From Mogibacterium sp. (GTDB lineage Bacteria > Bacillota > Clostridia > Peptostreptococcales > Anaerovoracaceae), in the NCBI GenBank assembly GCA_017434025.1, contig JAFRGC010000006.1:1454-65453 (forward strand): a stretch of DNA of 64,000 bases. The letters are read 5' to 3'. The position numbers and the translations under genes are program-made. The notes under the pieces are model-generated. The model made no database searches, was not told the origin of the DNA, and saw only the letters and a list, made by a program, of their open reading frames with translations. Positions 19,084 through 58,005 of this stretch are shown one piece after another. The stretch's first letter is position 1, and the number at the start of each line of letters is the position of its first letter.

Positions 19084-19089
19084 GTCAGT

Positions 19090-26121: not shown

Positions 26122-26123
26122 TT

Positions 26124-27251: not shown

Positions 27252-27273
27252 TACTATCTTTCCTGTTGTTTTT

Positions 27274-28566: not shown

Positions 28567-28568
28567 AG

Positions 28569-29504: not shown

Positions 29505-29522
29505 ATTGTTTGCACCTCAGTT

Positions 29523-30650: not shown

Positions 30651-30667
30651 TTCGCTACCTCCGGGAG

Positions 30668-34977: not shown

Positions 34978-35084
34978 AATTGTCTCCAAAACAAAAAACT
35001 TCGCAAACAATAACGTTTGTGAAGCTGATTGTAAGACGTAAAATTGAACAGAACAACGAACCTTTACGTTCTTATATATTTATA

Positions 35085-35206: not shown

Positions 35207-35935
35207 TCAGTTCTTGGCCTCATAGAACTCTATTGCCTCTTCGATCGGCCCATCGAAAAGTTTGGTGCCTTTCTCCAGAACGATCCCTCTGCTGCAGAAA
35301 TCCTGGGCTGTTGTCAGAGAATGTGTGACGAACAGCAGCGTGACATCTTCGTCTGCCATGATCTCAGCGACCTTATCCTTGCACTTCTTCTGGAAGGCTT
35401 TATCACCTACACTCAGTGCCTCGTCAACGATCAGGATGTCCGGCTGAGCATTTACGTTTATTGCAAAACCAAGTCTGGCTTTCATACCGCTGGAATACGA
35501 TCTGAGCGGCTGATCGATATAATCACCGATATCCGCAAATTTAATGATATCACCCTCGACAGCCTTGATCTCCTCCTCATTCATGCTCATGAGGCTGCAC
35601 TTGAAGGAGATGTTTTCTCTGCCGGTGGACTCTATATCAAATCCCGCGCTGAGTTCCAGCAGCGCGCTGACTTTGCCGTTGACGTATACTTCGCCCTCTG
35701 TCGGGAAAGTAACGCCCGTAACCATCTTGAGGATCGTTGACTTGCCAGCGCCGTTACGCCCGAACAGCGCAACACTCTCGCCTCTCCTCACTTCAAAGGA
35801 GAGGTTCTTGACGGCACGGTTCTCTTTGTAAGGAACTTTCTTGCTGAACAGTCCCTTGAACCTCGCGCGGCTGCTCTTGTACAGCTTGTAGAGCTTGGTT
35901 ACGTTATCGAATCTTACTACTACTTCGTTTTCCAT
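35207..35935 (-). CDS. tagH: Teichoic-acid/polysaccharide export ABC transporter ATP-binding protein (TagH/Wzt/KpsT type, short form)
   Basis: Walker A GRNGAGKSTILK, signature YSSGMKARLGF and Walker B ILIVDEALSVGD. The N-terminal YKLYKSSRARFKGLF segment is typical of TagH/KpsT. Confidence 0.85.
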   Translation of the reverse strand: MENEVVVRFDNVTKLYKLYKSSRARFKGLFSKKVPYKENRAVKNLSFEVRRGESVALFGRNGAGKSTILKMVTGVTFPTEGEVYVNGKVSALLELSAGFDIESTGRENISFKCSLMSMNEEEIKAVEGDIIKFADIGDYIDQPLRSYSSGMKARLGFAINVNAQPDILIVDEALSVGDKAFQKKCKDKVAEIMADEDVTLLFVTHSLTTAQDFCSRGIVLEKGTKLFDGPIEEAIEFYEAKN

Positions 35936-35956
35936 ATATCTAATCTCAACAAATCA

Positions 35957-36763
35957 TTAAAGTACATCCGGGATCTCTTTGCGCAGCTTCCTGTACGCCC
36001 ATAACGCGCCTAAGATGGCGACCGTCAGGGTGATAGCGAAGCAGACCAGCGATACTTTATCCGTCCAGAACCATTTCTTGTAGATGAACACTCTTCTGTA
36101 TCCTGTAGCGATGACTGTGACAGGATTGAACTTCAGGAGGATCCGCACCCACCTGGATGGAATATCGTCTACATTGTAAATAATGCCTGACATCCAGAAT
36201 ATTGCAGATGATAATGCTGTTACCAGATTCTGGAAGTCCTTGCTCAGCGCAGACAGCATCCCTGCAAACAGGGACCATACTATGAAGAATACCAGCATCA
36301 TGAACATATACAGCGGTATCTGCAGCGCATAGATATCCGGCGCATGGCCGAAGGCAGCAAACAATACAAATGTAATGCCAAGAATGATCAAGTGAATGAA
36401 CAGGTGCGACAGATTCACGTATGTCGGGATGATGGAAACCGGGAATTTCATTTTGGTGACAAGATGACTGTACTTTCTTATACAGCCAGCACCTCCGGTT
36501 ATCATTTCCTGCATGAAGAACCAAGGCAGGAAGCCCGCTTCAAGCCACAGGAAGAAAGGATATCCCTCAACTGGTTTGCCGCTTCTCAGTCCTACAGAGA
36601 AAGCAAACCAGAATACGAACAGCGTGATCAACGGTTTGATGATCGCCCATGACCAGCCAAGTGCAGCTCCTCTGTATGTCTTCACCAGATCGGATTTGGC
36701 AAGTTTAATTATCTGTTCCTTGTATTGAAGATGCTCGTCGAGTATTTCTTTAATCGTATTCAA
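35957..36763 (-). CDS. tagG: ABC-2 type transporter permease (TagG/KpsM type)
   Basis: 268 aa with 6 TM segments. The N-terminal DLVKTYRGAALGWSWAIIKP motif is typical of ABC-2 polysaccharide permeases. Probable TTG start. Confidence 0.85.
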   Translation of the reverse strand: MNTIKEILDEHLQYKEQIIKLAKSDLVKTYRGAALGWSWAIIKPLITLFVFWFAFSVGLRSGKPVEGYPFFLWLEAGFLPWFFMQEMITGGAGCIRKYSHLVTKMKFPVSIIPTYVNLSHLFIHLIILGITFVLFAAFGHAPDIYALQIPLYMFMMLVFFIVWSLFAGMLSALSKDFQNLVTALSSAIFWMSGIIYNVDDIPSRWVRILLKFNPVTVIATGYRRVFIYKKWFWTDKVSLVCFAITLTVAILGALWAYRKLRKEIPDVL

Positions 36764-36789
36764 TGTACTGAACTTCTCTCTTTCTCAAT

Positions 36790-38952
36790 TTACTTCTTCC
36801 CGATTACTGATTTGATCTTCTTTCTGATACGGCTCAGATTATCTACACCGCTCAGGACTCCATACTTCGCGGCTTTATCTACAGATGTCTTCAGTCCCAT
36901 ATAGAAGTTGTTTTCCTGGATCATCTTATTATTATCCAGCAGAGACTTTTCGTAAAGCACTGATAACATCATCTTCTTATATACTTCTGACTTCAGGCTG
37001 GCATCTTCAATGATGTCCTCCAGTTCATCAATGACAGAGTACGCGAAGACTCTTCCGTCAGCGATCACACTCCAGTCATAGTATTCATAGAAGACATTTG
37101 CGATCTGTCCTGCCAGGAAGTTGAAGTCATCTTCATCTGTATACCTGTTGATCAGTGTGAGGATCTTCTCTGCAAAATGATCACGGCCTTCTTCTATGCT
37201 GAGATATGTCTCCGGATTGATGTACAGAGATACCCCCTGTTTCCTTCCAACGTTCCCTTTGTAATCGTATACAGTCTCAGCAAAACCGATCTCAGATATA
37301 TTGCCTCTGCGGATGAAATCCATGATCAGTTCTCTGTGCCACAGCTTGTTGCACAGATCTCCTCTGAAGTCGGAGCCAACGAAGCCCGGGCTGACGGTGA
37401 CCATCTTGTTCCTGTTTCTGGTCGTTACCTTCTCCGAGTGGCAAGGGAAGCACATGCCGACACTCATATGACGGGTCAGGCTGTCATAGATCTTCTCCGT
37501 CAGTCTGAACTGCGGTTCTTTGGACTCGATCAGCATCATATAGTCATAATCGGAGTGCCCGGCGATCGCCTCACGGAATATATCCCAATCGTCGAACGAC
37601 GATACTTTGGTCAGGTCGATCGTAGGTTTGTACCTTTCGAGCCACAGCTTGATCCTGTTCAGCTCAAGGTGCCACAGATCTCTTTCTTTCGTTCCCCGTT
37701 TCTTTGCCCGGTATTCGTGTATCCTTTCAGCCAGATGTGACTGATCATAGTATGCCCGGTACTCTTCCTCATTGCCGTCAGTTATGAGCAGATGCAGATT
37801 CGTATGGAAATACTTATAGTTGAAGATGCAGCTGTAGATATTGATATATGTCTCCGGCGACATCTCTCTGACTTTAATGTAGAAATCAACGGTCAGCTTC
37901 TCATTATCTGTCTCACTCTTGATGAACGCCTTGACCTCTTCCGGAGTGGTGTCGGTCTTGTCAAAATACCTGTAGTATTCATCTCCGCACGAGATGATCG
38001 ATGCACCCGTCGAGCTGAATGTAACGACTCTGGCGAAGCGCTTTCCCTGATAGTTGAGTACTTCTATAGGGAAATCCTTAGGCAGGACTGTTACGTTGTC
38101 ATTCCCGTAGATCATCCAGTTATTCTTCTCTGCCGGATGAGGTTTGAGGATGACATGGTATCCCTGTTCGATCTCGTTATTAATGATTTTCTTATTCAGA
38201 AGATAACTCTGCAGATATGTACAGTACTTGGCCCTGTCAAGCGGCTGCCCGATCACAAGGCTGCTGTTATCCTGAATATTGAATCTGCCTACATCGAATA
38301 TGTACAGTAAGGCATCTCTGAACTTCTCAGGGTTCTCCTCGACGATGTCCTTGAAATCCCTGACTTCCAGTTTTGATTTATAGTAATCATCAAGCTCATC
38401 AATGTAGATACTGCTTATGATCTTCTTGACCTTCTCATATCTGTACAGCGGCTGCGGATAGTAGCCTTTCTCTACAAATGGTTCGATCAGAGCTGCATCC
38501 CCTCTAAGTCTGTGAATGCTGACCTGCTGCAGAAGTGATCCGTATCCGTCCTCAACACCTATGATATTCTCGAAATGCTTGCAGATGTAATAATAATGCC
38601 ACTGGAAGTCATTATATACATAGATCTCATCGTCCGGGTCAGCATCAGTGAACAGCTCTGCATAATGCGGGATCAGATACTCATCGAAAAGTGAAGATCC
38701 GAGCGCGTCGATCTCTGATTCATCCATATCGATCGTCTTGCGGAGTTCCCTGAGAAATGGTACATGTTCACCTCTTCTGGTAATACCGATGACCTTGTTG
38801 AAAACACCGGTATCTTCTATTCGTTCAAGCACCTCATCGCTGAGATTGATGTACGACATCGAAAAATAGAGATTCGGCTTCTCATCAAATGTCAGTGCCA
38901 ATGCGATCGAATGCATCAGCTGATAATATGTCATTGCTACTAATGATTTCAT
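36790..38952 (-). CDS. Two-domain protein: N-terminal bacterial sialyltransferase-like (GT52/GT38-like) domain plus an uncharacterised C-terminal half
   Basis: The N-terminal 320 aa carry VEDGYGS (D/E-D/E-G motif, about aa 134), KPHPAEK (HP motif, about aa 272) and TFSSTG (S-S motif, about aa 313). This region is homologous to the C-terminal domain of the next gene's product. Confidence 0.5.
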   Translation of the reverse strand: MKSLVAMTYYQLMHSIALALTFDEKPNLYFSMSYINLSDEVLERIEDTGVFNKVIGITRRGEHVPFLRELRKTIDMDESEIDALGSSLFDEYLIPHYAELFTDADPDDEIYVYNDFQWHYYYICKHFENIIGVEDGYGSLLQQVSIHRLRGDAALIEPFVEKGYYPQPLYRYEKVKKIISSIYIDELDDYYKSKLEVRDFKDIVEENPEKFRDALLYIFDVGRFNIQDNSSLVIGQPLDRAKYCTYLQSYLLNKKIINNEIEQGYHVILKPHPAEKNNWMIYGNDNVTVLPKDFPIEVLNYQGKRFARVVTFSSTGASIISCGDEYYRYFDKTDTTPEEVKAFIKSETDNEKLTVDFYIKVREMSPETYINIYSCIFNYKYFHTNLHLLITDGNEEEYRAYYDQSHLAERIHEYRAKKRGTKERDLWHLELNRIKLWLERYKPTIDLTKVSSFDDWDIFREAIAGHSDYDYMMLIESKEPQFRLTEKIYDSLTRHMSVGMCFPCHSEKVTTRNRNKMVTVSPGFVGSDFRGDLCNKLWHRELIMDFIRRGNISEIGFAETVYDYKGNVGRKQGVSLYINPETYLSIEEGRDHFAEKILTLINRYTDEDDFNFLAGQIANVFYEYYDWSVIADGRVFAYSVIDELEDIIEDASLKSEVYKKMMLSVLYEKSLLDNNKMIQENNFYMGLKTSVDKAAKYGVLSGVDNLSRIRKKIKSVIGKK

Positions 38953-38975
38953 GTGTTTTTGCTTCCCTATTACAG

Positions 38976-41963
38976 TTATTTAAGCATTAACGTTTTCTTG
39001 ATCTTCCGCTTGATCTTTTTGATCTTTCGTTTGATTTTCTTACTTCTGCTGACTGGAACTTCTTTGATGATTTCCTTTATAGCTTTGCCTACCTCTTCAT
39101 ACTCAAAGTCATGTAATTTGAAGAATGCTTTCTTCTCTTTGGCAATCGTTATCGTTTCTATAGCACTTGATCCGAAGGTAATGGCTCTTGATATCTCTAC
39201 ATCAAGATAATTATAGACTTCGATCGGAACGTTTTTCGGTAATATCGTTCCTCCCAAATAGCTGTAATCCATTTTATCAGCAGGGTGAGGTTTGATAAGA
39301 ACCCTCCCGCTCTTGTATGTCGCAAGCATTTTCTTCATCAGCTTCCTTTGGTCGTTTTCGGAACAATAACCGAATAACGCCAGCGGTTGTGTCAAAAGAA
39401 GCGTTGCATCAGGACTAAACTGTCCCGGATCAACATCGTATATCTGCAGCAGAAATTTCCTTATCTCATCATGATATTCCTGCTCGACCAGTTTCGTATC
39501 ATCGATCTCTATTTTATCATAATAGAATTCCGGAATCTGTTCCGGCCGGGAACTGACAATGATTTTATTGATCTTGTCAGATCGGAAGAACATCAGTGGG
39601 TATGTGGTACCTTCATATTTCTGTATTCCTGCCCATATACCCTGGATCTCATGGGTCTTCACCTCACGGTCAAAGGAATTGTAAGCATCTTCCAGCTTCA
39701 CGATATGATCAAATTCTCTTTCGATATAATACCAGTACGGAAGTGAATCCGAGAATATATAAATAGTGTCAATCTTAGTGTTGCACTCTTTGAAAACATC
39801 CTTGAACCTGCTGTACAAGAAATGAGGAATGATTATATCGTCCTCCCCCGGTCGTTTTCTTAACTCTTCGAAGAGATTTACTACGATACCTCCATAAACA
39901 AACGGTTTTACAAGATCGAAGATCCCGGTTTGTCTTATTTTATAAATCAGGTTAGTATCAAACGGAATATATGACTGGCAGATGAACAATCTGCATTTTC
40001 TCTTATTTTTCAGCGCATACAGGCATGCGACATATAGATGATAGTGCGTAAATACAACATAATCATCATATGGTTCGGCCTGATCTCCTTCTGTCCCGTA
40101 ATATTTATCTATTACATATTTAAAATACTCAAAATTATCAACTGTAAATGCTTGTGTTAACTCTTTGATATTCTGAGCATACTTATCAACAGAAAGATAT
40201 TCTTTCCTTTCGAGCACAAACTTTCTTATTTTTTCAAAGGCAAGTAATTGGTCCTTCTCAGGGAACGAATAGAAAGAATACAGATACAGATTAAGATCTG
40301 TCAGAAGAATCGTCTCTAATCGTCTTGATCTGGCCACCTCAGGATAATCGATCCATGCACGCGCCTGTTTCGTTAATCGCTCCTCAAGGTTTCTGATAGT
40401 AACTGTTGATGATATCGTCGTATTATCTCCATACTGATACCACCAATATATTGGAACATTTATATAATGAAATTCCGGGATATTTGCATATAACTTTGCG
40501 GAATACTCAACATCTTCATACAAACCTGGGGTAAACCATATACCTGCGTCATTGATTCTCTGTCTTCTGATGAGTGAATTAGTCACCATGACATCCGAAT
40601 ATATTTCGTTTTCACTATTATCCGCGTAATAGCAGGTAAAAGTATCTCCGGCAAGATACTTCTGTGATTCTATCTGCGGTACCCCTTTGTCATCACACAG
40701 AATTCTGATACCGCGAACCATATCCAGATCATAGAAATCTGCATGTGACACCAGACACCTTAATCCATCACGGCTTATGGTATCATCTGCGTCCAGGAAG
40801 AAGATATATTTGCCGGTGGCTTTCCTGATCCCGTAATTCCTGGATAGCCCAAGGCCTTCATTTTCTTTATGGAAGTATTTTATCCTGTTATCATTGAAGG
40901 TTTCTGCTAATTGTTTTTCTACATTGTCTCTGGAACCATCATCAATGATCAGGATCTCGACATTTTCATGACCACTGTTAAGTACAGATCCCACAGCACG
41001 ATTCACGAAATCCATAGGAGTGTTGTACCTGCAGATAATAAAGCTTACTTTGCTTTCAGCACAATTATTGATATTGTACAGAGCCTCCATGAGTTTTCTG
41101 TACTTTACATATTCGCTGTCTTCTGAGCCGAATTCTATAGTCTTTGACTTTGCTGCAGCGTCTTCTAATACTTTCAGCTGAAAGTCTGAAAACCTTCGTA
41201 TATTATCTGTTTTCAGCTTAATGTCATTCTTGCTTATTAATTCATCAAAATAGCTTTTTGAATACTCGTCTTCTATAAGAATCGTTCCGTCAAACTCTTT
41301 AAGAACGGACAGCGGTTCAAGCTGTGCCTTTAATTCGAGAAAGGTTGTAGCGCATTTCTCGTTGCGTTTCTCGGAGCAGATTATAATATTGTTGCCTGAG
41401 TCTTCTTTTACAGAATTAAAGAGATGGTATAGACCATTTCTGTCTTTGAGCGCATCTTCCTTTCTGTTGGATGTAACTATCAAAAAATCTTCTTTATCAG
41501 CCGGAGGATCCTCTTCGATGTCCATTGCATCTATGATCGTTTCCGGTGTACAGGATCCAATTTTTTTTACATGAATATGATCAAATCTTGTCGCTATACT
41601 CTCTTCTACAGATGAGCTGTCAGTGATGATCTCATTGATCTCTGCCATGCATCCGGCGAAATGATTAACATCGAAATCATGCAGCACATAGATCAGCGTC
41701 TGATTGTTTTTTCTCTTAAAATAGCGCGGCGCCTGCGTAGTAACTACTGTATATTCTGCAGTATCCCGGAAATAAATGAACCGGCTGGAGTTCATCTCAA
41801 AGTGGATCTTCCTGTCGAGAACACTCCTGGATATATAGCTAAAATTATAGCCGGTAACTAAAATGTCATAACATTCCGAGTATCTGCCTACAAATGCATC
41901 AAGCAATTCGGGAATGCCTTTTTCCTTATAGTCACCGATAAACAGTATCTTTGGCTTTTTCAT
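38976..41963 (-). CDS. Three-domain glycosyltransferase: N-terminal unknown/GT-B-like domain, central GT2 domain, C-terminal sialyltransferase-like domain, basic tail
   Basis: GAGGAG Shine-Dalgarno, then MKKPKILFIGD. The GT2 core is VSFIICRYNTP..ILIIDDGSRDN..FLDADD. The C-domain has LEDAYNS, IKPHPADK and TFGSSA, and the tail is KKIKRKIKKIKRKIKK. G+C is markedly lower than in the flanks. Confidence 0.6.
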   Translation of the reverse strand: MKKPKILFIGDYKEKGIPELLDAFVGRYSECYDILVTGYNFSYISRSVLDRKIHFEMNSSRFIYFRDTAEYTVVTTQAPRYFKRKNNQTLIYVLHDFDVNHFAGCMAEINEIITDSSSVEESIATRFDHIHVKKIGSCTPETIIDAMDIEEDPPADKEDFLIVTSNRKEDALKDRNGLYHLFNSVKEDSGNNIIICSEKRNEKCATTFLELKAQLEPLSVLKEFDGTILIEDEYSKSYFDELISKNDIKLKTDNIRRFSDFQLKVLEDAAAKSKTIEFGSEDSEYVKYRKLMEALYNINNCAESKVSFIICRYNTPMDFVNRAVGSVLNSGHENVEILIIDDGSRDNVEKQLAETFNDNRIKYFHKENEGLGLSRNYGIRKATGKYIFFLDADDTISRDGLRCLVSHADFYDLDMVRGIRILCDDKGVPQIESQKYLAGDTFTCYYADNSENEIYSDVMVTNSLIRRQRINDAGIWFTPGLYEDVEYSAKLYANIPEFHYINVPIYWWYQYGDNTTISSTVTIRNLEERLTKQARAWIDYPEVARSRRLETILLTDLNLYLYSFYSFPEKDQLLAFEKIRKFVLERKEYLSVDKYAQNIKELTQAFTVDNFEYFKYVIDKYYGTEGDQAEPYDDYVVFTHYHLYVACLYALKNKRKCRLFICQSYIPFDTNLIYKIRQTGIFDLVKPFVYGGIVVNLFEELRKRPGEDDIIIPHFLYSRFKDVFKECNTKIDTIYIFSDSLPYWYYIEREFDHIVKLEDAYNSFDREVKTHEIQGIWAGIQKYEGTTYPLMFFRSDKINKIIVSSRPEQIPEFYYDKIEIDDTKLVEQEYHDEIRKFLLQIYDVDPGQFSPDATLLLTQPLALFGYCSENDQRKLMKKMLATYKSGRVLIKPHPADKMDYSYLGGTILPKNVPIEVYNYLDVEISRAITFGSSAIETITIAKEKKAFFKLHDFEYEEVGKAIKEIIKEVPVSRSKKIKRKIKKIKRKIKKTLMLK
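39000..39041 (-). repeat. 2 x 21 bp tandem duplication encoding KKIKRKI-KKIKRKI at the transferase C-terminus
   Basis: GATCTTCCGCTTGATCTTTTT and GATCTTTCGTTTGATTTTCTT match at 17 of 21 positions. Confidence 0.8.
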
Positions 41964-42009
41964 TACGCACTCCTCGCGACCAGACAAATGCCAATCAGTC
42001 AGCACAGGA

Positions 42010-43023: not shown

Positions 43024-43990
43024 CACATCCTCCGCTGCAGGCTGTTTCACAGATGAGATCCTTGCCGGACCGGTCTGACCGGAAAGATCTCAGTTTGTCA
43101 GCCATCTGTTTTCTTTTATCAAATGAGAACATGCTCCTGATGACTTCCGCGTCATCATCATACATGGCCTCTGTGAATCCGTTTTCTGTCAGGTACATGG
43201 TGTTCAGCCTCTGGTTGTCAGCAACAACGACCAATACTGACGGGAGCTGCATCTTGATCAGTTCGTTTGTCGTTCCTCCTGCGGATGCAACAGCAAAATC
43301 ACATTTCTCCATAAGGCTGCACATATCGGCTGCCTCAATATTCAGATATAATCTGTCTTCACTGCCGAGACTGTTCCTGATCTCATCCAGATCTCTGTAC
43401 GCTCTCGTGCAGACTACATGAAGACGGGCGGTTTCTGAAATCTCTTTGAGGTCTTTGATGATCACCGCGGTTCTTCCCAGAGGATCCGTTCCTCCCATGG
43501 TGATCAGGATATCGGTAACCTCTTCCTTGATGGTCCTCTCACCATGCAGTCTGAATTCATCCCTCAGTAAGGTGTAATCCTTGCCAAGATACAGAGTGTT
43601 GTTCCGGTCAGCAGGATAGTTCATGAAGACCGAGAAATAATTCGGATTGAGGATCTTCATATCATGATAGTCGAGCCTGATATTATCATCTATTACTATC
43701 ATGTCTCCGGCCAGAGCGCGGAATTCCTCCAGCAGCTGCAGATCCACATGGTAGGAATCAATGACAAGCAAAACATTCCTGTTAAGTATGCTTCCGTATA
43801 CTTCAGGATCTTTCCATTCTGCGAATTCTATATATTCCTTGTCCAGATTGGATCTCGCAGTGTCATCTGCCATCAGGTACATCGTCACATCACGGCCTTC
43901 TCTGACCGCTCTGTCGCAGATGCCTGACATTCTGTAAAAATGACCGAAGCCGTACATGAAGCCGGCTTCGGAAAAAATCACTAATTTCAA
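43016..43990 (-). CDS. PseG/SpsG-like UDP-sugar hydrolase (GT28/MurG-like fold)
   Basis: The N-terminus KLVIFSEAGFMYGFGHFYRMSGICDRA fits the PseG consensus (x-R-x-D-x-x-x-x-G-x-G-H), and GGT..E lies near the C-terminus. Probable TTG start. At 324 aa there is no fused GNAT domain. Confidence 0.65.
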   Translation of the reverse strand: MKLVIFSEAGFMYGFGHFYRMSGICDRAVREGRDVTMYLMADDTARSNLDKEYIEFAEWKDPEVYGSILNRNVLLVIDSYHVDLQLLEEFRALAGDMIVIDDNIRLDYHDMKILNPNYFSVFMNYPADRNNTLYLGKDYTLLRDEFRLHGERTIKEEVTDILITMGGTDPLGRTAVIIKDLKEISETARLHVVCTRAYRDLDEIRNSLGSEDRLYLNIEAADMCSLMEKCDFAVASAGGTTNELIKMQLPSVLVVVADNQRLNTMYLTENGFTEAMYDDDAEVIRSMFSFDKRKQMADKLRSFRSDRSGKDLICETACSGGCDE

Positions 43991-43994
43991 ATTA

Positions 43995-44822
43995 CTATTT
44001 GCCCTCCAGAAGAGCCGCAGCCCTGTTCATTTCCTGCAGCTTGAGCAGCTTAACTGCAGCCTCGAGCTCTGCCTCAACCGTATCGTATTTCTGCTTCTGC
44101 ATGATATCACCATTGATATTGCTGATATACGGATGCTCTTTGAAGCAGTCGAGTACAGTTCTGAAAGACAGTCTGTTCTCTTTGCCGCGGATGAAATCTG
44201 TGACTACGCATGCCAGTGTGTAGTCATTGATCGTATCGACCGTGATCCTCACCTTGCTGTAATCTTCATCCGGCAACGCGAGGCTTCCGATCCTGAATTC
44301 ATCCTGATGATGTGTAACATAGCTGGTAACATGCTCTCTGTAGAACTGCTCCGTCGTGTTCTCATGCATCCATTTGAGGACATCATAAGTCAGGATCTCA
44401 CAGTCGAGTCCGTGAGGATAAGTTCTCCTGATGCAATTGCTCGCATACTGATAGTCTCCTTTGATGAAGAGGTCTATCAGCTCCTCGATGACCGAAGGGT
44501 CGAGGAACGGACAGTCACTTGTGATCCTTACTACGTTGTCATATCCGAATTCAGTCGCCGCGTTGTAGAAACGGTCCAGAACGTCATTCTCACTTCCGCG
44601 GTAATATGCGATGCCTTCTCTGGCTGCGTATTCTGCCAGCGGATCATCATCTGCATTGATCGTGCACGCAATGACAAAGTGATCCAGGTTCTTCACAGCT
44701 CTGAGTCTTTCGACTACACTGCCGAGGACAGTCATCCCATTCGAATAATCCAGAGTCCTGAGCACCTTACCCGGCAGTCTGCTCGAGGTCATTCTGGCCT
44801 GAACGATACATCCTGTTTTCAT
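43995..44822 (-). CDS. Cytidylyltransferase (CTP_transf_3, SpsF/PseF/NeuA-like), putative CMP-nonulosonate synthetase
   Basis: MKTGCIVQARMTSSRLPGKVL is the characteristic SpsF-type nucleotide-binding loop, and RITSDCPFLDP is also present. Confidence 0.7.
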   Translation of the reverse strand: MKTGCIVQARMTSSRLPGKVLRTLDYSNGMTVLGSVVERLRAVKNLDHFVIACTINADDDPLAEYAAREGIAYYRGSENDVLDRFYNAATEFGYDNVVRITSDCPFLDPSVIEELIDLFIKGDYQYASNCIRRTYPHGLDCEILTYDVLKWMHENTTEQFYREHVTSYVTHHQDEFRIGSLALPDEDYSKVRITVDTINDYTLACVVTDFIRGKENRLSFRTVLDCFKEHPYISNINGDIMQKQKYDTVEAELEAAVKLLKLQEMNRAAALLEGK

Positions 44823-44837
44823 TGTATTATGACTCCT

Positions 44838-45848
44838 CTAGACAAGCTTGTATTCTACGAGCAGTTTCTCAATATCTTCGACTGAAAGCCACTCAGAGTT
44901 GTTTCCGGAGTTATACTCAAAACCGTCCTCGATCGGCTTGCCGCCTTCTTTGAAGGAACGCTTGAAATCGAACCATTCGAAGTTTGGATAGATGATGTAG
45001 TAATCACCATAATCGTATGTTGATCTGGAGTCATCCTTGGTGATCATGACTTCGTGGATCTTCTCACCCTCTCTGATGCCTACGATCTTCATCTTAGCAT
45101 CCGGTGCCATAGCCTTGCAGATGTCTGTTACTTTATATGAAGGGTTCTTGAATACGAAAGTTTCACCGCCTGTCATATTTTCAACAGCCATGAGAACCAG
45201 CTTAACTGCCTTGTCGAGGGTCATCCAGAATCTGGTCATTCTCTCATCTGTTACAGGGAGCTCATCAAATCCCTTGTCGATCAGATCCTTGAAGAACGGG
45301 ATTACCGAACCGCGGCTTCCGGATACGTTGCCGTATCTTACCAGACCGAACTTGGTGCCGTTTGCTCCGGAATATGCGTTAGCCGATACGAACAGCTTGT
45401 CGGATACCAGTTTGGTACCGCCGTAGAGGTTGATCGGGTTGACAGCCTTGTCTGTAGACAGAGCGACTACCTTCTCTACACCAGTCTCAAGAGCAGCATC
45501 AATGATGTTCATAGCTCCGTTGATGTTGGTCTTGATAGCCTCTGTAGGGTTGTATTCGCAAGCCGGTACCTGCTTCATAGCAGCTGCATGGATAACGATA
45601 TCTACACCCTTGAATGCCAGCTTGAGTCTGTCCTTATCCCTGATATCTCCGATGAAGAATCTGAACTTCTTCATTGCTTCAGCACCATACTTTGCTGTGA
45701 AGTCCTTCTTCATCAGGTCCTGCTTGAACTCATCTCTTGAGAAAATGATGATTTTTCCGAAGTTGTACTTTTCGATCAGCTCTCCGGAAAATGCTTTACC
45801 GAATGAACCTGTTCCCCCAGTGATAAGAATAGTTTTGTCTGCGAACAT
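44838..45848 (-). CDS. pseB: UDP-N-acetylglucosamine 4,6-dehydratase (inverting), PseB/FlaA1/CapD-like
   Basis: KTILITGGTGSFGKAF, IIIFSRDEFKQ and YGGTKLVSDKL (YxxxK) form the typical PseB pattern. Confidence 0.8.
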   Translation of the reverse strand: MFADKTILITGGTGSFGKAFSGELIEKYNFGKIIIFSRDEFKQDLMKKDFTAKYGAEAMKKFRFFIGDIRDKDRLKLAFKGVDIVIHAAAMKQVPACEYNPTEAIKTNINGAMNIIDAALETGVEKVVALSTDKAVNPINLYGGTKLVSDKLFVSANAYSGANGTKFGLVRYGNVSGSRGSVIPFFKDLIDKGFDELPVTDERMTRFWMTLDKAVKLVLMAVENMTGGETFVFKNPSYKVTDICKAMAPDAKMKIVGIREGEKIHEVMITKDDSRSTYDYGDYYIIYPNFEWFDFKRSFKEGGKPIEDGFEYNSGNNSEWLSVEDIEKLLVEYKLV

Positions 45849-45890
45849 ACCTGTTTCCTCCGTGTTTAATGATTAGTTTAAATTAGTATC

Positions 45891-47039
45891 TTATATTTTG
45901 AACTTCTTAATAGTATCGATAACGAATCCCTGCTCTTCCGCTGTCATGCTGTGGTACATCGGAAGGCTGATCTCTCCAGTATAGAATGCTTCTGCTTCCG
46001 GACAATCGCCTTCTTTGAATCCGAAATTATCCATGTAGTATGGATGCAGATGAAGAGGTACATAATGGATCTGTGCATAGATCTTATTCTCACGCAGATA
46101 AGCGTGTAAAGCCTTGCGGACTTCCGCTGAGCAGCATCTGATCGTGAACAGATGATATGAGTGAACTGTATCGCCCTCTGCATCAAATCCGAGATGCGGC
46201 GGCAGTTCGAAGAAGCTGCAGTCCTTGAGCTCCTCATGATATCTTGCTGCAATAGCATTTCTTGCTGCAAGATTCTCTTTGAGCCTTGCGAACTGGCTGA
46301 GTCCGAGCGCTGCCTGGAAATCCGTCAGTCTGTAGTTGTAGCCAAGCTCCTGCATCTCATAATACCATGGGCCGTCATTCTTCCTGAGTCTTGCCGGATC
46401 TCTGGTGATACCGTGTGTCCTGAACAGTCTGAGTTTCTCATTCAGCTCGTCACTGTTCGTCAGGACCATGCCGCCTTCACCTGTCGTTACGTGCTTGACC
46501 GGATGGAAGGAAAGGATGGCCATGTCGACGTATTCCATGCCAAATGTTCCGTCTCTCCTGCTTCCGAGTGCGTGGCATGCGTCATGGATAATGTGGCAGC
46601 CCTTCTCCTGCGCGATCTCGTGGATCGCTTTCAGATCAACCGGATATCCTGCATATGATACCGGTGTGATCACCTTAGTCTTGTCTGTAATAGCATCTCT
46701 GAGCTTGTTGACGTCCAGGCAGTTTGTGGAAGGATCCATATCAACAAAGCGAGGTGTCGCGCCACAGTAGAGACCGCCGTTGACAGAAGCTGCAAATGTG
46801 ATCGGTGAAGAGATCACTTCATCTCCCGGGCATGTTCCAAGCGCGTAATAAGCAGCGTGGAGGGCTGCTGTTCCGTTGGCAAATGCTACACCATACTTAG
46901 CGCCGTGATACTCCGCAACAGTTCTCTCGAATTCCGGAAGGACCTCTCCCTGAGTGATCAGTTCAGATCTGAGGACCTCTACCACTCTTGCTATGTCTTC
47001 TTCTGTAATGCACTGTTTACCGTAAGGTATCTTGTTCAT
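45891..47039 (-). CDS. pseC: UDP-4-amino-4,6-dideoxy-N-acetyl-hexosamine transaminase (PseC/DegT family)
   Basis: IPYGKQCITEEDIARVVEVLRSELITQGEV and FANGTAALH, with the PLP-Lys region SFHPVKHVTTGEGG. GGAGG Shine-Dalgarno lies before the ATG at 47039. Confidence 0.8.
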   Translation of the reverse strand: MNKIPYGKQCITEEDIARVVEVLRSELITQGEVLPEFERTVAEYHGAKYGVAFANGTAALHAAYYALGTCPGDEVISSPITFAASVNGGLYCGATPRFVDMDPSTNCLDVNKLRDAITDKTKVITPVSYAGYPVDLKAIHEIAQEKGCHIIHDACHALGSRRDGTFGMEYVDMAILSFHPVKHVTTGEGGMVLTNSDELNEKLRLFRTHGITRDPARLRKNDGPWYYEMQELGYNYRLTDFQAALGLSQFARLKENLAARNAIAARYHEELKDCSFFELPPHLGFDAEGDTVHSYHLFTIRCCSAEVRKALHAYLRENKIYAQIHYVPLHLHPYYMDNFGFKEGDCPEAEAFYTGEISLPMYHSMTAEEQGFVIDTIKKFKI

Positions 47040-47053
47040 CTCATCCTCCCTTT

Positions 47054-48205
47054 CTATCTGCACGCCTCCAGGATCTTCTGGACTGCGAGTTTATCAAGCG
47101 TCAGATATCCGTTGATATTGTTTTTCCTGCAGATCGCTTCAGCCATATCGGCTGCGTCGATCTCTTCTATTCCTGCGGCTTTCAGTGATGATGCCAGTCC
47201 GAGGGTCTCATACAGGAATTTCTCCACGCTGTCCACCGCTGCGCATTCATCAGTAACGCCGAAAACATTCTCTCCGAACTCTCTGAATCTTGCTCTGGTC
47301 TCCGGCTCTGCATCCATACAGTATCTCATCCACTTAGGAATGATGATCGCCAGTCCGAGACCATGTGTCATATCGTATCTTGCGGACAGTTCGTGTTCGA
47401 TCGGGTGACAGCTCCATACCTGTCTGGATCCTCCTCCGAACAGTCCGTTGATCGCCCAGGATGCCGCCCAGAGCAGGTTCCCTCTTGCCTCGTAGTTATC
47501 CGGCTCAGCAAGTACCTTCTCTGCGTTGGCAACGACCGCTTTCATAACGCCTTCCATCATTCTGTCGAGCAGGCAGAAGTCCAGGTCCTTCTTGAAGTAA
47601 CTCTCCATCACATGTGAGAGTATATCTGCTGCTCCGCAGGCTGTCTGGAACCGAGGCACAGAATAGGTCAGCTCCGGATCCAGGAATGAGGCCTTAGGAA
47701 AGACCGGGAATCCTCCCCGTCCGAGTTTCTCGCAGGTCTCATCATTGCTGATGACTGCCCCGCAAGTCATCTCAGATCCTGTAGATGCCATCGTCACGAT
47801 CGTGAACAGCGGCAGGGCCTTCTCGATGGCTCTGCGCGGGCCGCCATAGAACTCCCATGGATCGAAATCCACACAAGCGCCGGCTGCGATCGCTTTGGAC
47901 GCATCGATAACGGAGCCGCCTCCGACTGCCAGGATGATCTCTATCCCTTCTTCTTTGCACTTATCTGCACCTCTGCGGATCGACCCGATCTTAGGATTTG
48001 GTTCGATCCCTCCGTGTTCGAAGACTTCAAAATCATCTCCCAGCAGATCCTTGATCCTGTCAAGCAGGCCGGTCCTGATCACAGAGCCTCCGCCGTAAAC
48101 GATAAGGACTTTTCTTCCGAAACTCTTCAGCTCAGCGTTCAGCTTGCCGAGGCAGTCCTTACCGAAATACATCTTGGTAGGAATGTGGAAAACAAAATCA
48201 TTCAT
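47054..48205 (-). CDS. Iron-containing (group III) alcohol dehydrogenase, butanol/4-hydroxybutyrate dehydrogenase-like
   Basis: Contains VGGGSVIDASKAIA and metal-binding His motifs (HPIEHELS..THGLGLA). AGGAG Shine-Dalgarno. Confidence 0.8.
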   Translation of the reverse strand: MNDFVFHIPTKMYFGKDCLGKLNAELKSFGRKVLIVYGGGSVIRTGLLDRIKDLLGDDFEVFEHGGIEPNPKIGSIRRGADKCKEEGIEIILAVGGGSVIDASKAIAAGACVDFDPWEFYGGPRRAIEKALPLFTIVTMASTGSEMTCGAVISNDETCEKLGRGGFPVFPKASFLDPELTYSVPRFQTACGAADILSHVMESYFKKDLDFCLLDRMMEGVMKAVVANAEKVLAEPDNYEARGNLLWAASWAINGLFGGGSRQVWSCHPIEHELSARYDMTHGLGLAIIIPKWMRYCMDAEPETRARFREFGENVFGVTDECAAVDSVEKFLYETLGLASSLKAAGIEEIDAADMAEAICRKNNINGYLTLDKLAVQKILEACR

Positions 48206-48217
48206 ATCGTAAATCTC

Positions 48218-49417
48218 CTACAGTTCATTCAGCACTCTGTCCAGTGTGTCGACTGCAAAATCAATATCTTTCTCTTCTATCAGGTAATCCGGCAGGAATC
48301 TGAGTGTATGTCCGCCGTTCGTTCCCTGGATGATCACACCGTTCTTCATCATGCGGTCGTAGAGTGTGGCGTAGAGAGGTCTGTAATCCTCAACGCCTTC
48401 ATAATACAGCTCGCATCCCAGCATCAGGCCCTTGCCTCTTGCGTCTCTGATATGATCATTCTTCTGCTCCAGCTCCTTGAGCTTCTCAAGGAAGTAATCG
48501 CCTCGTGCAGTGATGCCAGCCAGCACATCATTCTTCTCGATATATTCAACAGCAGTATTGATGATTGCTGCCGCAAAGGAATCATTCTGGTGTGAGCTGT
48601 AATGCGACATTCTGTATACTTCGTCAGGAACGAGTTCTTTCCTGAACATCGCTACCGATACCGGGAATCCGAGGCCTACGCTCTTGGCAAGAACGACCAT
48701 ATCCGGAACGGTCTCAAAGGTCTGGTACGCGAACCAGTTACCGGTCCTTCCGAACCCTGTCTGGCTCTCGTCGAATACGAGCAGTGTATCGTTGTCATCG
48801 CAGACTTTGCGCAGCAGCTCGAACCACTTCTTCGGCGGATACAGCATTCCTCCGACAGAAACGATCGGCTCGAGTATTACAGATGCGTAATTGCCTGTAG
48901 CGAGGAGCTTATCCAGCGCAGCTGCTGATTCAACAGCCTCCTCTTCTGTTACAGGGACCTTGATGGTCTCGATCTCGTCTACATGAGGTTTCGCGAATTT
49001 GCCGCCAAACGTGATCGTCTGTGAACCGAGTGTAAGTCCGTGATATCCCTTGTCAAAACAAACTACGCCTTCTCTGCCCTTGAGGAATTTGGAGAACCTC
49101 ATGCAGAATTCCACTGCTTCCGAGCCTGTGCTCAGGAGGATGCTGTACGCATCCATATCTCCGCTCAGCTCATTGAGTTTGTTAGAGCATATTGCGACTT
49201 CATCAGTATATATATTAGAAGCTGTATGAACGATCTTCCTTGCCTTATCGAAGATCTTCTCCAAGACTTCTTCATTTGAATGTCCAAGCGCGACACAGAA
49301 CTGTCCTGAATTGAGATCAAGATATTTCTTGCCCTCAACATCATAGACCCAGCTGCCTTCACCTCTGGACATGATCTCTTCAGTGAAATGAATAATAGGT
49401 AATAAATGGTTTTCCAC
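48218..49417 (-). CDS. Class III (omega/GABA/acetylornithine-type) PLP aminotransferase
   Basis: Contains YLDLNSGQFCVALGH and LVFDESQTGFGRTGNWFA, with the catalytic-Lys region VLAKSVGLGFP. I prefer the GTG start at 49417, just after the upstream stop, with AAGGAGG upstream. The ORF track extends to 49477. Confidence 0.75.
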   Translation of the reverse strand: MENHLLPIIHFTEEIMSRGEGSWVYDVEGKKYLDLNSGQFCVALGHSNEEVLEKIFDKARKIVHTASNIYTDEVAICSNKLNELSGDMDAYSILLSTGSEAVEFCMRFSKFLKGREGVVCFDKGYHGLTLGSQTITFGGKFAKPHVDEIETIKVPVTEEEAVESAAALDKLLATGNYASVILEPIVSVGGMLYPPKKWFELLRKVCDDNDTLLVFDESQTGFGRTGNWFAYQTFETVPDMVVLAKSVGLGFPVSVAMFRKELVPDEVYRMSHYSSHQNDSFAAAIINTAVEYIEKNDVLAGITARGDYFLEKLKELEQKNDHIRDARGKGLMLGCELYYEGVEDYRPLYATLYDRMMKNGVIIQGTNGGHTLRFLPDYLIEEKDIDFAVDTLDRVLNEL

Positions 49418-49422
49418 TACTC

Positions 49423-50637
49423 CTATACCTCCTTGATAATAAATTTTTTCTCTATTTCTGCACAGATCTCTCTGCACTTATCTAAAGTATCTGCTTTCAC
49501 AACATAGAAGCCTCTGCCCATAACAGAGCTTCCGTCTGTGACTTTGCCCAGCCTGTCGCCTTCCTTCATATAGCAGTTATAACAGAAGACGCCTTCCATC
49601 GCTTCGATCTCTTCCTGCGTCGGGAGATACTCGATCACGCCCTCAAGCAGGTCAAAATAGCGGATAAGCATGCTTTCCGCATTGTATGTATAGCATACCT
49701 TATGCTCTTCGCCGCGTGAACGGGCTGTCGCATAGTCTATATACTCTGAAAGCATATCAAATCCTGTTGCGTATCTTGTAAAGTAATTGTGAAGATAATG
49801 TCCGGATGGACGAGGTGACAGCTCGATGATAAAGGCTTCCTTGCCATCATCCATTATATCCACGTGCATCAGGCAGTCATCGAGGCCGAGGACCTCTGTC
49901 GCTCCGCCAAGAACAGCATAGACTCTGTTAAAGAGTTCTGCAGTCTCACTATTCTGCTCAATTGCGTAATATCCGACACACTGTCTGTAAGGTTCCGGTG
50001 TCAGGAGCTTCTCTCTGAGAAGGATCAGGTGGAACTCTCCCCCTGCTATAAACGCATCGACGCCATATTCAATGCCTGGTTTGCAGGTCTCGACGATATA
50101 GTCTTCATCGTATTCTGCAACATCGGCATTATCATCCCTGAGCTCTTCAAAAGACTTGTAGACCTTGACTGCTCTGCTTCCTGAGCCGAATCTAGGCTTC
50201 ATTACGACCGGATACTGCATATCCCTGAGTCCGTCTATCTGCTCCTTGCGGTTGATCAGCACAGCATCCGCGTTGCGAAGACCCGCGTCTGAAAGGATCC
50301 GATGGAATTCCCATTTATCAGTCGCGAGACTGGCTGCTCTCTGTCCAACGCCCGGAAGTCCGTATCTGTCATTCACCGCGCCGGCGGTAGTCAGAATTCT
50401 GCCAACCGGGACCGGCAGCAGAAAGTCTACCGGGTTGCTGTCAAAGAACTCGAATACCGCACCCGTATCTCTCAGATCTACTGTATATCCTTCATCCGCG
50501 CATTCCAAACCCGGTGCAGCCGGATTACCGTCTATTGCGATCGTCGTTATGCCCCTTGCACGGGCTTCTTTGATCGCATATATAGATTCACTGCTTGCAC
50601 CGATGATTCCTGCTCTATATTTCTCTTTCATATACAT
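49423..50637 (-). CDS. ATP-grasp domain ligase (paralog 4), first gene of the nonulosonic-acid operon
   Basis: Contains YRAGIIGASSESIYAIKEAR, VVMKPRFGSGSRA, YIVETCKPGIEYGVD and IIELSPRPSG. Confidence 0.75.
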   Translation of the reverse strand: MYMKEKYRAGIIGASSESIYAIKEARARGITTIAIDGNPAAPGLECADEGYTVDLRDTGAVFEFFDSNPVDFLLPVPVGRILTTAGAVNDRYGLPGVGQRAASLATDKWEFHRILSDAGLRNADAVLINRKEQIDGLRDMQYPVVMKPRFGSGSRAVKVYKSFEELRDDNADVAEYDEDYIVETCKPGIEYGVDAFIAGGEFHLILLREKLLTPEPYRQCVGYYAIEQNSETAELFNRVYAVLGGATEVLGLDDCLMHVDIMDDGKEAFIIELSPRPSGHYLHNYFTRYATGFDMLSEYIDYATARSRGEEHKVCYTYNAESMLIRYFDLLEGVIEYLPTQEEIEAMEGVFCYNCYMKEGDRLGKVTDGSSVMGRGFYVVKADTLDKCREICAEIEKKFIIKEV

Positions 50638-50683
50638 ATAACCTTAATATCGTTATCAAGCCGCTTAACCCCATTATTATGTA

Positions 50684-50712
50684 ATTTTAACACAATATGC
50701 TGTATTGAACAA
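50684..50712 (-). promoter_or_regulatory. Candidate sigma-A promoter with extended -10 for the 12-gene operon
   Basis: The minus strand reads TTGTTC-N17 (ending TGT)-TAAAAT. It lies directly downstream of the 50741-50773 terminator and about 45 nt upstream of the ATG. Confidence 0.5.
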
Positions 50713-50740
50713 TTTGAAACTCTTGAGATCCTTTCAATAA

Positions 50741-50773
50741 CAAAAAGAGGCTTCTGCTATCAGCAGAAGCCTC
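50741..50773 (-). terminator. Rho-independent terminator after the NlpC/P60 gene
   Basis: A 12-bp perfect stem GAGGCTTCTGCT / AGCAGAAGCCTC with a 3-nt loop, then TTTTT on the minus strand. Confidence 0.85.
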
Positions 50774-50793
50774 CCCCTGATCCTGTATATTTT

Positions 50794-52986: not shown

Positions 52987-53038
52987 CTGTAAAACCACCC
53001 CTTGCATCAAGTAGTTCTCATTATAATAATCCATTGTT

Positions 53039-53067
53039 ATTTTATTGATTAATGGCCTAATAATCAA
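53039..53067 (-). promoter_or_regulatory. Candidate promoter of the NlpC/P60 gene overlapped by an inverted repeat
   Basis: The minus strand reads TTGATT-N17-TAAAAT. The inverted repeat ATTGATTA-N9-TAATCAAT (53044-53068) spans the -35 to -10 interval. Confidence 0.4.
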
Positions 53068-56419: not shown

Positions 56420-56456
56420 ATGATCACCCTGCCCCTGTCAGGAGCAATACTAAGAT

Positions 56457-57839: not shown

Positions 57840-58005
57840 CACATCCTTCTTGAATGATCTGTAGTATATCATGTCTCTTTTGTTCCACGCAAAAAGCGGG
57901 GATAGACTTCTAGCCATTGTACGCAAATTCTATCACCGCTTTCAGATCATTCAATTAACAGACGTTTAGTATTAACAGAATTAAAGGAAACCCTTGCGCC
58001 GACGC

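Follow-up and report, generated by a model that had tools for sequence, protein, structure and literature searches.

A 64-kb window (the whole stretch of DNA that was analysed) from a metagenome-assembled genome (MAG) of Mogibacterium sp. (Anaerovoracaceae, Peptostreptococcales, Clostridia) carries on its minus strand, at 35207-50637, a block of 12 co-directional genes that with a probability of about 0.6 encodes an ABC-transporter-dependent wall glycopolymer of the teichoic acid type, containing a modified pseudaminic acid (Pse). The block begins with genes for an ATP-grasp ligase, a class-III aminotransferase and an iron-dependent alcohol dehydrogenase (Fe-ADH), continues with the genes of a Pse pathway and of two large transferases of 1009 and 720 amino acids (aa), and ends with the genes of a TagG/TagH-type exporter (Table 1). 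The wall-polymer reading is well supported in silico, because the Pse genes, the gene of the 720-aa transferase and tagGH are syntenic at related loci, and because genes for TagD, TagB, TagF and an LCP ligase are found in the corresponding runs of distant relatives. A first reading of the DNA from its letters (the sequence-only reading in the following) had proposed a cytoplasmically assembled, TagGH-exported, nonulosonate-containing and LCP-attached wall polymer encoded by a self-contained operon, and comparative genomics supports the polymer, while the self-containment had to be given up.

The linkage of the parts is conserved across families. Within the Anaerovoracaceae, synteny is kept between the Pse genes, tagGH and the gene of the 720-aa transferase; the sequence-only reading had suggested a comparison of operon architectures across Lachnospiraceae/Clostridia genomes. 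Homologues of TagG and TagH adjoin the 720-aa transferase or Pse genes at the loci L007, L008, L012, L013 and L015, the TagG homologues sharing 55-75% identity, and this linkage is kept down to 33-36% transferase identity, including in an Erysipelotrichaceae MAG. Two distant metagenomic loci bring the teichoic acid genes into direct contact with the Pse genes: in L018 a single run encodes TagD, TagB, TagF, PseC, the transferase, PseB, a cytidylyltransferase, further proteins, PseG, PseI and PseH, and the run in L019 begins with TagH, TagD, TagB, TagF, PseC, the transferase and a second sialyltransferase-like protein and continues with PseB, a cytidylyltransferase, PseH, PseI, PseG and LCP. In L006, L007 and L015, TagF-domain proteins are encoded between pseI and the transferase gene, and TarB/TarF-like homologues neighbour Pse or transferase genes in L007, L010, L012, L015, L018 and L019. 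At one of the loci, in a Mogibacterium MAG from horse faeces (L008, 12341-18989), an IS30 transposase gene separates tagG from the gene of the 720-aa transferase, tagG and tagH have two reverse-strand open reading frames (ORFs) between them, and just past tagH comes a gene for a DDE transposase; this cluster is disrupted or mobilised.

Sugar genes and the ATP-grasp triad

Whether the sugar is of the Pse or of the legionaminic acid (Leg) type had been regarded as undecidable from the sequence, but the equivalog models TIGR03589, TIGR03588 and TIGR03586 decide the question. PseB (TIGR03589, 515.6 bits, cut-off 407.75), PseC (TIGR03588, 441.9 bits, cut-off 423.5) and PseI (TIGR03586, 468.5 bits, cut-off 340.25) all pass the NCBIfam equivalog cut-offs, whereas the respective models for LegB (63 bits, cut-off 475), LegC (213.7 bits, cut-off 420) and NeuB (288.6 bits, cut-off 399.65) fall short, so that the sugar is, as judged by these profiles, Pse-type and not Leg-type. 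Legionaminic and neuraminic acid were rejected on the same scores. The exact PseB sequence is annotated as inverting UDP-GlcNAc 4,6-dehydratase in a Mogibacterium MAG, and there is no NeuC/LegG-type epimerase gene in the operon. The PseG-like hydrolase is divergent, with 133.6 bits against TIGR03590 (cut-off 153.55) in an alignment that covers model positions 1-277 of 280. The cytidylyltransferase does not match the PseF model TIGR03584 and is presumed to be the CMP-Pse synthetase; at its position, L013 encodes a canonical PseF (299.8 bits).

What the pathway lacks in the window is an acetyltransferase, as neither PseH (GNAT) nor an LbH acetyltransferase was found in the 64 kb by tblastn or by Pfam scans, the latter covering the coding-frame ORFs that reach at least 200 aa. 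Ten loci were compared in this respect (the window, L008, L010-L013 and L016-L019), and an acetyltransferase gene is present in none of the four loci with the ATP-grasp gene (the window, L008, Butyrivibrio L016 and Adlercreutzia L017) and in all six transferase loci without it (L010, L011, L012, L013, L018 and L019), a count that represents fewer than ten independent events, the loci being related. In L012 and L013 the acetyltransferase is PseH (TIGR03585, 106.6 and 105.2 bits, cut-off 93.1), in L018 and L019 it is a PseH homologue with 43-46% identity to these two, and in L010 and L011 it is a hexapeptide-repeat acetyltransferase encoded adjacent to pseC. We infer from this distribution that the ATP-grasp ligase, whose relatives in the PDB are L-amino-acid ligases, stands in for PseH by acylating the UDP-sugar at its 4-amino group, the future N7 of Pse. 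Later enzymes of the pathway have been studied with non-acetyl N-acyl variants: PseI of C. jejuni is reported to convert them (PMC13576459), and the tolerance of PseF to N-substitution has been investigated (PMC11040635). A 4-hydroxybutanoyl group at N7 would be a guess for which the literature searched gives no support, and an ATP-grasp-dependent branch of Pse synthesis is not described in the full texts searched.

The other two members of the triad are clear as to their families. The aminotransferase is elsewhere called as a protein of 399 aa, and its true start is probably near 49417; the Fe-ADH has the PDB relatives 1vlj, 7w9x and YqhD with E-values of 1e-70 to 1e-86. The full triad is found also in the actinobacterial Pse cluster of Adlercreutzia (L017), and the ATP-grasp ligase alone in the nonulosonate cluster of Butyrivibrio (L016). 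In the latter (Butyrivibrio proteoclasticus, 11200-13110), the gene of the ATP-grasp homologue (45% identity) is followed by those of a fusion of a cytidylyltransferase with an Orn/DAP/Arg-type decarboxylase, of NeuB and of a PseG-like protein; in this other nonulosonate cluster, the ligase family is paired with a tailoring enzyme of a different kind. Genes of an aldo-keto reductase and a second class-III aminotransferase adjoin the cytidylyltransferase gene in the Pse clusters of L017 (5894-9978) and L018 (13282-16295).

The two large transferases

Two giant transferases had been recognized from the sequence, and both are real, although they are better described as bifunctional enzymes that each combine a sialyltransferase-like domain with a GT-A domain. 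The 720-aa protein reaches 44.7 bits with PF07388 (gathering threshold 23.3) and 33.0 bits with PF07922 (gathering threshold 26.1), and in an alignment of 33 homologues E134-D135-G136 and H272-P273 are invariant. Such D/E-D/E-G and HP motifs are typical of bacterial sialyltransferases and are present in the Pse/Leg transferases of Tannerella (PMC5420450). In the AlphaFold2 model (pLDDT 89.8), the N-terminal domain matches the sialyl- and polysialyltransferase structures 2zwi, 5wc6 and 2ex1 by Foldseek, and only this fold search was informative, as searches of the PDB sequences with the single query and with the 33-sequence profile gave no match. The following GT-A-like domain is matched by GT-A enzymes (5hea, AvpGT, TarS, TarP) as well as by nucleotidyltransferases, and D470 and N535 are its only near-invariant residues among the 33 homologues.

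The family of the 720-aa protein is small: in a set of 1.84 billion proteins, 85 representatives reach E<=1e-30, and the family was detected in 10 of 185,579 species genomes. Its public labels range from 'hypothetical protein' to 'alpha-2,8-polysialyltransferase family' and 'glycosyltransferase family 52'. The transferase is always accompanied by PseB, PseC, PseG and PseI, Pse genes being present at every examined locus that reaches beyond the transferase genes, and Neu5Ac-pathway genes are not among the families called at the homologue loci examined. A CMP-Neu5Ac donor is thus not supported, because the NeuB model stays under its cut-off, NeuC is missing and all these loci have Pse genes, and the donor would be CMP-Pse. 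Taken with the modelled fold, the N-terminal domain is a candidate pseudaminyltransferase or polymerase.

The 1009-aa protein has its two glycosyltransferase domains behind an N-terminal Rossmann-like domain that matches neither TagF-like nor sialyltransferase-like profiles in hhalign and has no match in a profile search of the PDB. Its central domain belongs to glycosyltransferase family 2 (GT2), with D355, D356, D405, D407 and D408 invariant, and has as its best Foldseek matches the teichoic acid glycosyltransferases RmlT, TarP and TarS, as well as CgT; the search with the full model was dominated by this domain, and the other domains were unreadable from that run. The C-terminal domain aligns with the N-terminal domain of the 720-aa protein at a hhalign probability of 100% (E 9e-61), and its Pfam membership is assigned by this alignment and by the PF07922 or PF07388 matches of the homologues P0058, P0060, P0063 and P0066. 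Here, E772-D773 is invariant and is followed by Ala instead of Gly, and H907-P908 is found in at least 90% of the sequences. With 38.9%, the G+C content of the gene is low in comparison to 49.9% in the window and 51% in the adjoining pseI, which suggests a horizontal acquisition or exchange of a polymer-specific gene, and other relatives have TagF-domain and GT8 proteins in its place. The low G+C content and the replacement in relatives together give the pattern that is expected for an exchangeable, serotype-determining polymerase gene. In an otherwise near-identical gene from another metagenome sample (L002, position 7665, corresponding to codon 226 in the window), a GGA-to-TGA nonsense change leaves ORFs of 225 and 704 aa; at the strain level, the variable transferase thus has a naturally occurring variant or has been inactivated.

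Operon boundaries, export and proposed pathway

The description of the block as 12 tightly packed minus-strand genes holds, as all 12 ORFs are found at their coordinates with internal gaps of at most about 47 nt and several gene overlaps, and every gene family name given to them from the sequence is backed by Pfam and NCBIfam. Near-identical contigs occur in several metagenome samples. A strong terminator indeed precedes the operon: it belongs to the upstream NlpC/P60 gene and consists of an 18-bp hairpin at about 50741-50779 and a U-run (dG -28.3 kcal/mol, z = -5.05 versus shuffles). The extended -10 promoter that had been proposed behind it is present as a sequence and is plausible as a promoter; it was not listed by a generic consensus scan, because its -35 hexamer fits at only 3/6 positions. 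There is no terminator 3' of tagH, and the next strong minus-strand hairpin is found at 23796-23763, which leaves the 3' end of the transcription unit open, and transcription may continue past tagH into the TarB/TarF-like genes. The operon thus cannot be called self-contained, as the block encodes no PseH, no priming phosphoglycosyltransferase and no LCP ligase, as the TarB/TarF-like genes lie outside it and as tagH lacks a terminator. Wzx/Wzy, flagellin and Maf genes are absent from the operon, as had been noticed before, and Pfam scans found no flagellin or Maf domains in the rest of the 64-kb window either. The host is a member of the Anaerovoracaceae and not of the Lachnospiraceae; GyrA and PseB of the window have identical counterparts in an NCBI MAG with the label Mogibacterium sp.

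The exporter is probably of the teichoic acid type. The best models for the ATPase are those of teichoic acid export ATPases (NF010065, 233 bits, cut-off 538; NF010066, 205 bits, cut-off 320), and the permease has weak KpsM and Wzm matches (KpsM model 43.5 bits, cut-off 300). Probable partners of the operon are encoded outside the 12-gene span. The TarB- and TarF-like genes lie two genes after tagH, and the genes of the LCP ligase and the WecA/TagO-like transferase are in the same window at a distance of 31-34 kb from the operon; the LCP gene had been noticed before, with the span 1406-2749, and is placed here at 1406-2770.

Table 1. Positions, strands and assignments of the genes, domains and signals in the window
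Feature	Positions	Strand	Basis or remark
Candidate promoter, TTGTTC, 17 nt, TGtTAAAAT (TG-extended -10)	50684..50712	-	direct sequence reading
Intrinsic terminator of the upstream NlpC/P60 gene (50794-53067)	50737..50779	-	sets the 5' limit of the unit
ATP-grasp carboxylate-amine ligase, 404 aa	49423..50637	-	PF02655, PF13535, LAL_C2
Class-III (omega-) aminotransferase, acetylornithine/GABA-aminotransferase-like	48218..49477	-	PF00202, 254 bits; PDB relatives
Fe-dependent alcohol dehydrogenase/aldehyde reductase, BdhA/YqhD-like	47054..48205	-	PF00465, PF25137
PseC, UDP-4-amino-4,6-dideoxy-N-acetyl-beta-L-altrosamine transaminase	45891..47063	-	TIGR03588
PseB, inverting UDP-GlcNAc 4,6-dehydratase	44838..45848	-	TIGR03589
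Cytidylyltransferase (CTP_transf_3), non-canonical subfamily	43995..44822	-	PF02348, 86.9 bits
PseG-like UDP-sugar hydrolase, divergent	43016..43990	-	TIGR03590, PF04101
PseI, pseudaminic acid synthase	42010..43050	-	TIGR03586
1009-aa transferase, whole gene	38976-42005	-	
1009-aa transferase, N-terminal Rossmann-like domain, aa 15-300	41106..41963	-	AlphaFold2, alternating strand-helix pattern
1009-aa transferase, central GT2 (GT-A) domain, conserved DDGS and LDSDD motifs	40407..41057	-	PF00535, 101.9 bits
1009-aa transferase, C-terminal GT52/polysialyltransferase-like GT-B domain, aa 645-1009	38979..40073	-	hhalign
720-aa transferase, whole gene	36790-38952	-	
720-aa transferase, N-terminal GT52/polysialyltransferase-like GT-B domain, aa 1-325	37978..38952	-	PF07388, PF07922
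720-aa transferase, GT-A-like domain, aa 330-600, weakly conserved	37153..37965	-	Foldseek
720-aa transferase, C-terminal all-helical tail, aa 601-720	36793..37152	-	DSSP on AlphaFold2 model
TagG-like ABC-2 permease	35957..36763	-	PF01061, 59 bits
TagH-like ABC ATPase, short form without C-terminal extension	35207..35935	-	NF010065, NF010066, PF00005
TarB-like glycerophosphotransferase, 371 aa	31915-33030	-	PF04464, 155 bits; NF041711, 118.7 bits
TarF-like glycerophosphotransferase, 416 aa	30668-31918	-	PF04464, 360 bits; NF041712, 326.4 bits
Three ATP-grasp ligases	26124-27251, 27274-28566, 29523-30671	-	
ArnC/PgfS-like polyprenyl-phosphate glycosyltransferase	28569-29504	-	
PaaK-like adenylating enzyme	24799-26163	-	
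Epimerase	23875-24783	-	
WecA/TagO-like GlcNAc-1-P transferase	2736-4088	-	PF00953, 126.8 bits; TIGR02380, 131.9 bits
LCP ligase	1406-2770	-	PF03816, 125.8 bits

The domain assignments and the synteny are results; the pathway proposed in the following goes beyond them as to the substrates, the order in which the enzymes act and the structure of the polymer, which we infer. PseB and PseC would convert UDP-GlcNAc to UDP-4-amino-4,6-dideoxy-L-AltNAc, the 4-amino group of which would be acylated by the ATP-grasp ligase in place of an acetyltransferase, with a carboxylate that the class-III aminotransferase and the Fe-ADH may form or trim; the group attached would probably be omega-hydroxy- or amino-acyl. 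The PseG-like hydrolase, PseI and the cytidylyltransferase would then yield the CMP-activated Pse derivative. On the cytoplasmic face of the membrane, the WecA/TagO-like enzyme (2736-4088) could start an undecaprenyl-PP-GlcNAc primer, which the TarB/TarF-like glycerophosphotransferases (30668-33030) could lengthen. The 1009-aa enzyme would alternate the transfer of a UDP-sugar by its GT2 domain and of Pse by its sialyltransferase-like domain, producing a [sugar-Pse]n chain that would have its analogue in the Gal-Kdn teichulosonic acid of Streptomyces, and the 720-aa enzyme, as the conserved core of the family, may prime, co-polymerise or branch the chain with Pse. The polymer, still linked to its lipid, would leave the cytoplasm through TagGH and would be ligated to peptidoglycan by the LCP enzyme (1406-2770).

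Other genes of the window may have functions that touch the wall or other glycans. Downstream of the TarB/TarF-like genes, six more minus-strand genes follow without a terminator in between (23875-30671), encoding the three ATP-grasp ligases, the PaaK-like and ArnC/PgfS-like enzymes and the epimerase; as a group they resemble a pathway to a lipid-linked sugar that carries an amino acid or a peptide and perhaps serves as another decoration of the same polymer. Further away, a double-domain TagF-like protein (1034 aa) is encoded next to a YfhO-family GT-C protein (915 aa; both at 7351-13189, minus strand), and a second ArnC-like GT2 enzyme is encoded on the opposite strand (22595-23653, plus); this arrangement suggests that a further or separate teichoic acid is glycosylated outside the cytoplasm. 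Genes for a Wzx-like flippase (17803-19098, minus strand), a DegT-type aminotransferase (14758-15894) and a GDP-mannose-dehydratase-like protein (15946-17019) indicate that a flippase-dependent glycan pathway coexists in the window, outside the operon. A perfect 13-bp palindromic hairpin between convergent genes (17735-17763) probably terminates transcription in both directions. Several genes of wall hydrolases or remodelling enzymes with wall-binding modules lie on the two sides of the operon (33148-35010, 50794-53067 and 55079-57926), of the types endolysin-like with SH3, NlpC/P60 with Big_2 and fn3, L,D-transpeptidase with choline-binding-type repeats, and CHAP with Big_2, and these enzymes may use the polymer as anchor.

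Alternative products and known systems

Several observations weigh against a Pse-containing wall polymer as the product. The closest structures of the GT2 domain are enzymes that decorate teichoic acids and not polymerases, the 720-aa protein has a GT-A-like domain of low conservation that may lack catalytic activity, and the PseG-like, TagH-like and cytidylyltransferase proteins all stay short of curated equivalog cut-offs. As to the triad, the relatedness of the ten compared loci has to be kept in mind, and a pseH gene that is absent from the 64-kb window could lie elsewhere in the genome; if so, the role of the triad would differ, for example in amidating a carboxylate. TagA (PF03808) and TagD (tblastn with a TagD query sequence) were not found in the window, and their genes could likewise lie elsewhere. 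Other TagF-like polymerases are encoded in the window as well (7351-10455), and TagGH, the sole ABC exporter there, may serve more than one polymer. Finally, L010, L011 and L018 have no TagGH genes within 10 kb.

An unlikely alternative is that Pse is only a side chain, in which case the TarB/TarF/TagF-like enzymes would build a glycerol-phosphate teichoic acid, to which the transferases would add hexose and Pse before TagGH export, like TarS, TarP or RmlT. The structural proximity of the GT2 domain to exactly these decorating enzymes of wall teichoic acid (WTA) fits this view, as do the TarB/TarF-like genes that follow tagH with no terminator in between, and the TagF-domain proteins in the Pse clusters of relatives, to which TagD adds in L018 and L019. 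However, the neighbouring glycerophosphotransferases have the size of primases or oligomerases (371 and 416 aa) and fit best to TarB and TarF, not to TagF/TarL polymerases, and the two paralogous polysialyltransferase-like domains, fused as they are to GT-A domains and long helical tails, are closer to bifunctional polymerases than to decorators that add one sugar; neither argument is decisive. Quite improbable is a product of another kind, namely an ABC-dependent capsule, an exopolysaccharide or an S-layer- or protein-linked glycan that is lipid-anchored, released or transferred to protein instead of being ligated by LCP, as in group-2 polysialic acid capsules, the poly-Pse K-antigen of Sinorhizobium fredii or the S-layer glycans of Geobacillus. 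The homology to polysialyltransferases, the weak KpsM and Wzm matches of the permease and the distance of 32 kb between the LCP gene and the operon would agree with such a product, and a poly-Pse capsule does exist in S. fredii HH103 (PMC4270759). On the other hand, neither KpsC/S/D/E-type genes (including PF05159) nor O-antigen-ligase/oligosaccharyltransferase-like (Wzy_C) domains were found in the window, the membrane proteins encoded at 4122-5906 and 20730-22538 having no such ligase or oligosaccharyltransferase-like domain, and in relatives the LCP gene is part of the L019 cluster and the linkage-unit genes tagD, tagB and tagF are part of the L018 and L019 clusters.

It would be very surprising if the parts were functionally unlinked, with the Pse genes serving the glycosylation of flagellin or another protein and TagGH exporting an unrelated, neighbouring glycerol-phosphate teichoic acid. 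Pse in Firmicutes is best documented on flagellins (PMC13317340), and TagGH could serve the TagF-like enzymes encoded elsewhere in the window. Yet there is no flagellin or Maf gene in the 64 kb, polymerase-like transferases are encoded inside the operon, and the Pse genes, the transferase gene and tagGH stay adjacent across lineages at 33-36% transferase identity; Mogibacterium is, moreover, described as non-motile. Flagellin glycosylation was rejected on account of the missing Maf and flagellin genes and the presence of an exporter and polymerase-like enzymes.

Going beyond the operon as such, it is conceivable, though this must be called tentative, that an undescribed class of teichoic-type wall polymer is made by Anaerovoracaceae and by a small number of other Clostridia from gut and rumen. 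Its backbone would contain Pse, as in a Firmicute 'teichulosonic acid', its polymerases would be a rare clade of GT52/polysialyltransferase-like enzymes and the first pseudaminyl polymerases with a sialyltransferase fold, and its Pse would stem from a new branch of the pathway, in which the ATP-grasp triad replaces PseH and provides a non-acetyl N7-acyl group. Full-text literature searches gave no description of a Pse-containing wall polymer exported by TagGH. The component systems are already known, namely wall teichoic and teichulosonic acids, ABC-dependent polymerisation and the Pse pathway; new would be their combination in Clostridia, the candidate Pse polymerases with a sialyltransferase fold and the triad in place of PseH. 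Pse is a host-mimicking, immunologically active sugar that is known mostly from Gram-negative capsules and lipopolysaccharides and from flagellins. If the prediction is true, a Pse-bearing wall polymer in commensal Clostridia widens the range of teichoic-type polymers and is relevant for phage and lectin recognition and for the host immune sensing of gut and rumen anaerobes. To our knowledge, few Pse-transferring enzymes are known, and the 720-aa family would offer candidate pseudaminyltransferases or polymerases for glycoengineering, while the triad of ATP-grasp ligase, aminotransferase and Fe-ADH would define a new tailoring route. The carrier of L012 is a cultured human-gut isolate (bacterium 210820-DFI.6.37) that has PseH and not the triad, and the polymer prediction is therefore directly testable.

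With the canonical CMP-Pse5Ac7Ac pathway of Campylobacter and Helicobacter (PseB, C, H, G, I, F), the operon shares PseB, PseC and PseI at the equivalog level, and the PseG-like hydrolase and the cytidylyltransferase are also there in pathway order. It differs in that PseH is absent from the window, that the ATP-grasp, omega-aminotransferase and Fe-ADH genes head the operon, and that the cytidylyltransferase is outside the PseF subfamily. With the WTA pathway of Bacillus and Staphylococcus, the window has a TagG/TagH-like exporter, the WecA/TagO-like initiator, TarB/TarF-like enzymes and LCP in common, and clusters of relatives incorporate TagD, TagB, TagF and LCP; unlike there, TagA and TagD were not found in the window and the operon has no long polymerase of the TagF/TarL type, which is replaced by the fusions of sialyltransferase-like and GT-A domains and the CMP-nonulosonate pathway.

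The transferases share the GT-B fold, the families PF07388 and PF07922 and the D/E-D/E-G and HP motifs with polysialyltransferases (GT38 enzymes of NmB and E. coli K1; GT52 Lst), but their predicted donor is a CMP-Pse derivative and not CMP-Neu5Ac, and they have no sequence match to solved structures. A fused second glycosyltransferase domain and ABC-dependent export are common to the operon and to polysialyltransferase and capsule polymerase systems with KpsMT export, which differ by their host, as the host here is Gram-positive, its exporter is of the TagGH type and KpsC/S/D/E are missing in the window. The capsule enzymes of N. meningitidis W and Y are bifunctional hexosyl-sialyl polymerases. 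In the K-antigen of S. fredii HH103, the Pse derivative bears a non-acetyl N-acyl group. This K-antigen, encoded by rkp-3, is likewise a polymer of a Pse derivative made by an ABC-dependent capsule pathway (PMC4270759), but unlike the system in the window it is a Gram-negative capsule on a lipid anchor.

The teichulosonic acids of actinomycetes, such as the Gal-Kdn polymer of Streptomyces coelicolor (SCO4873-SCO4882), are likewise anionic, peptidoglycan-linked polymers with a nonulosonic acid as the acidic unit (PMC11481543, PMC7831098, PMC13011467), and the Gal-Kdn polymer of Streptomyces is free of phosphate (PMC11481543, PMC7831098). In comparison to the latter, the system in the window belongs to Clostridia and not to Actinobacteria and is predicted to contain a Pse derivative and not Kdn. 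Wall polymers with Pse have reportedly been found in Kribbella and Actinoplanes by Tul'skaya et al. in 2011. The [hexose-nonulosonate]n repeat of teichulosonic acids is just what would be expected as the product of a fused GT2 and sialyltransferase-like enzyme, and here, too, ligation by LCP would be expected.

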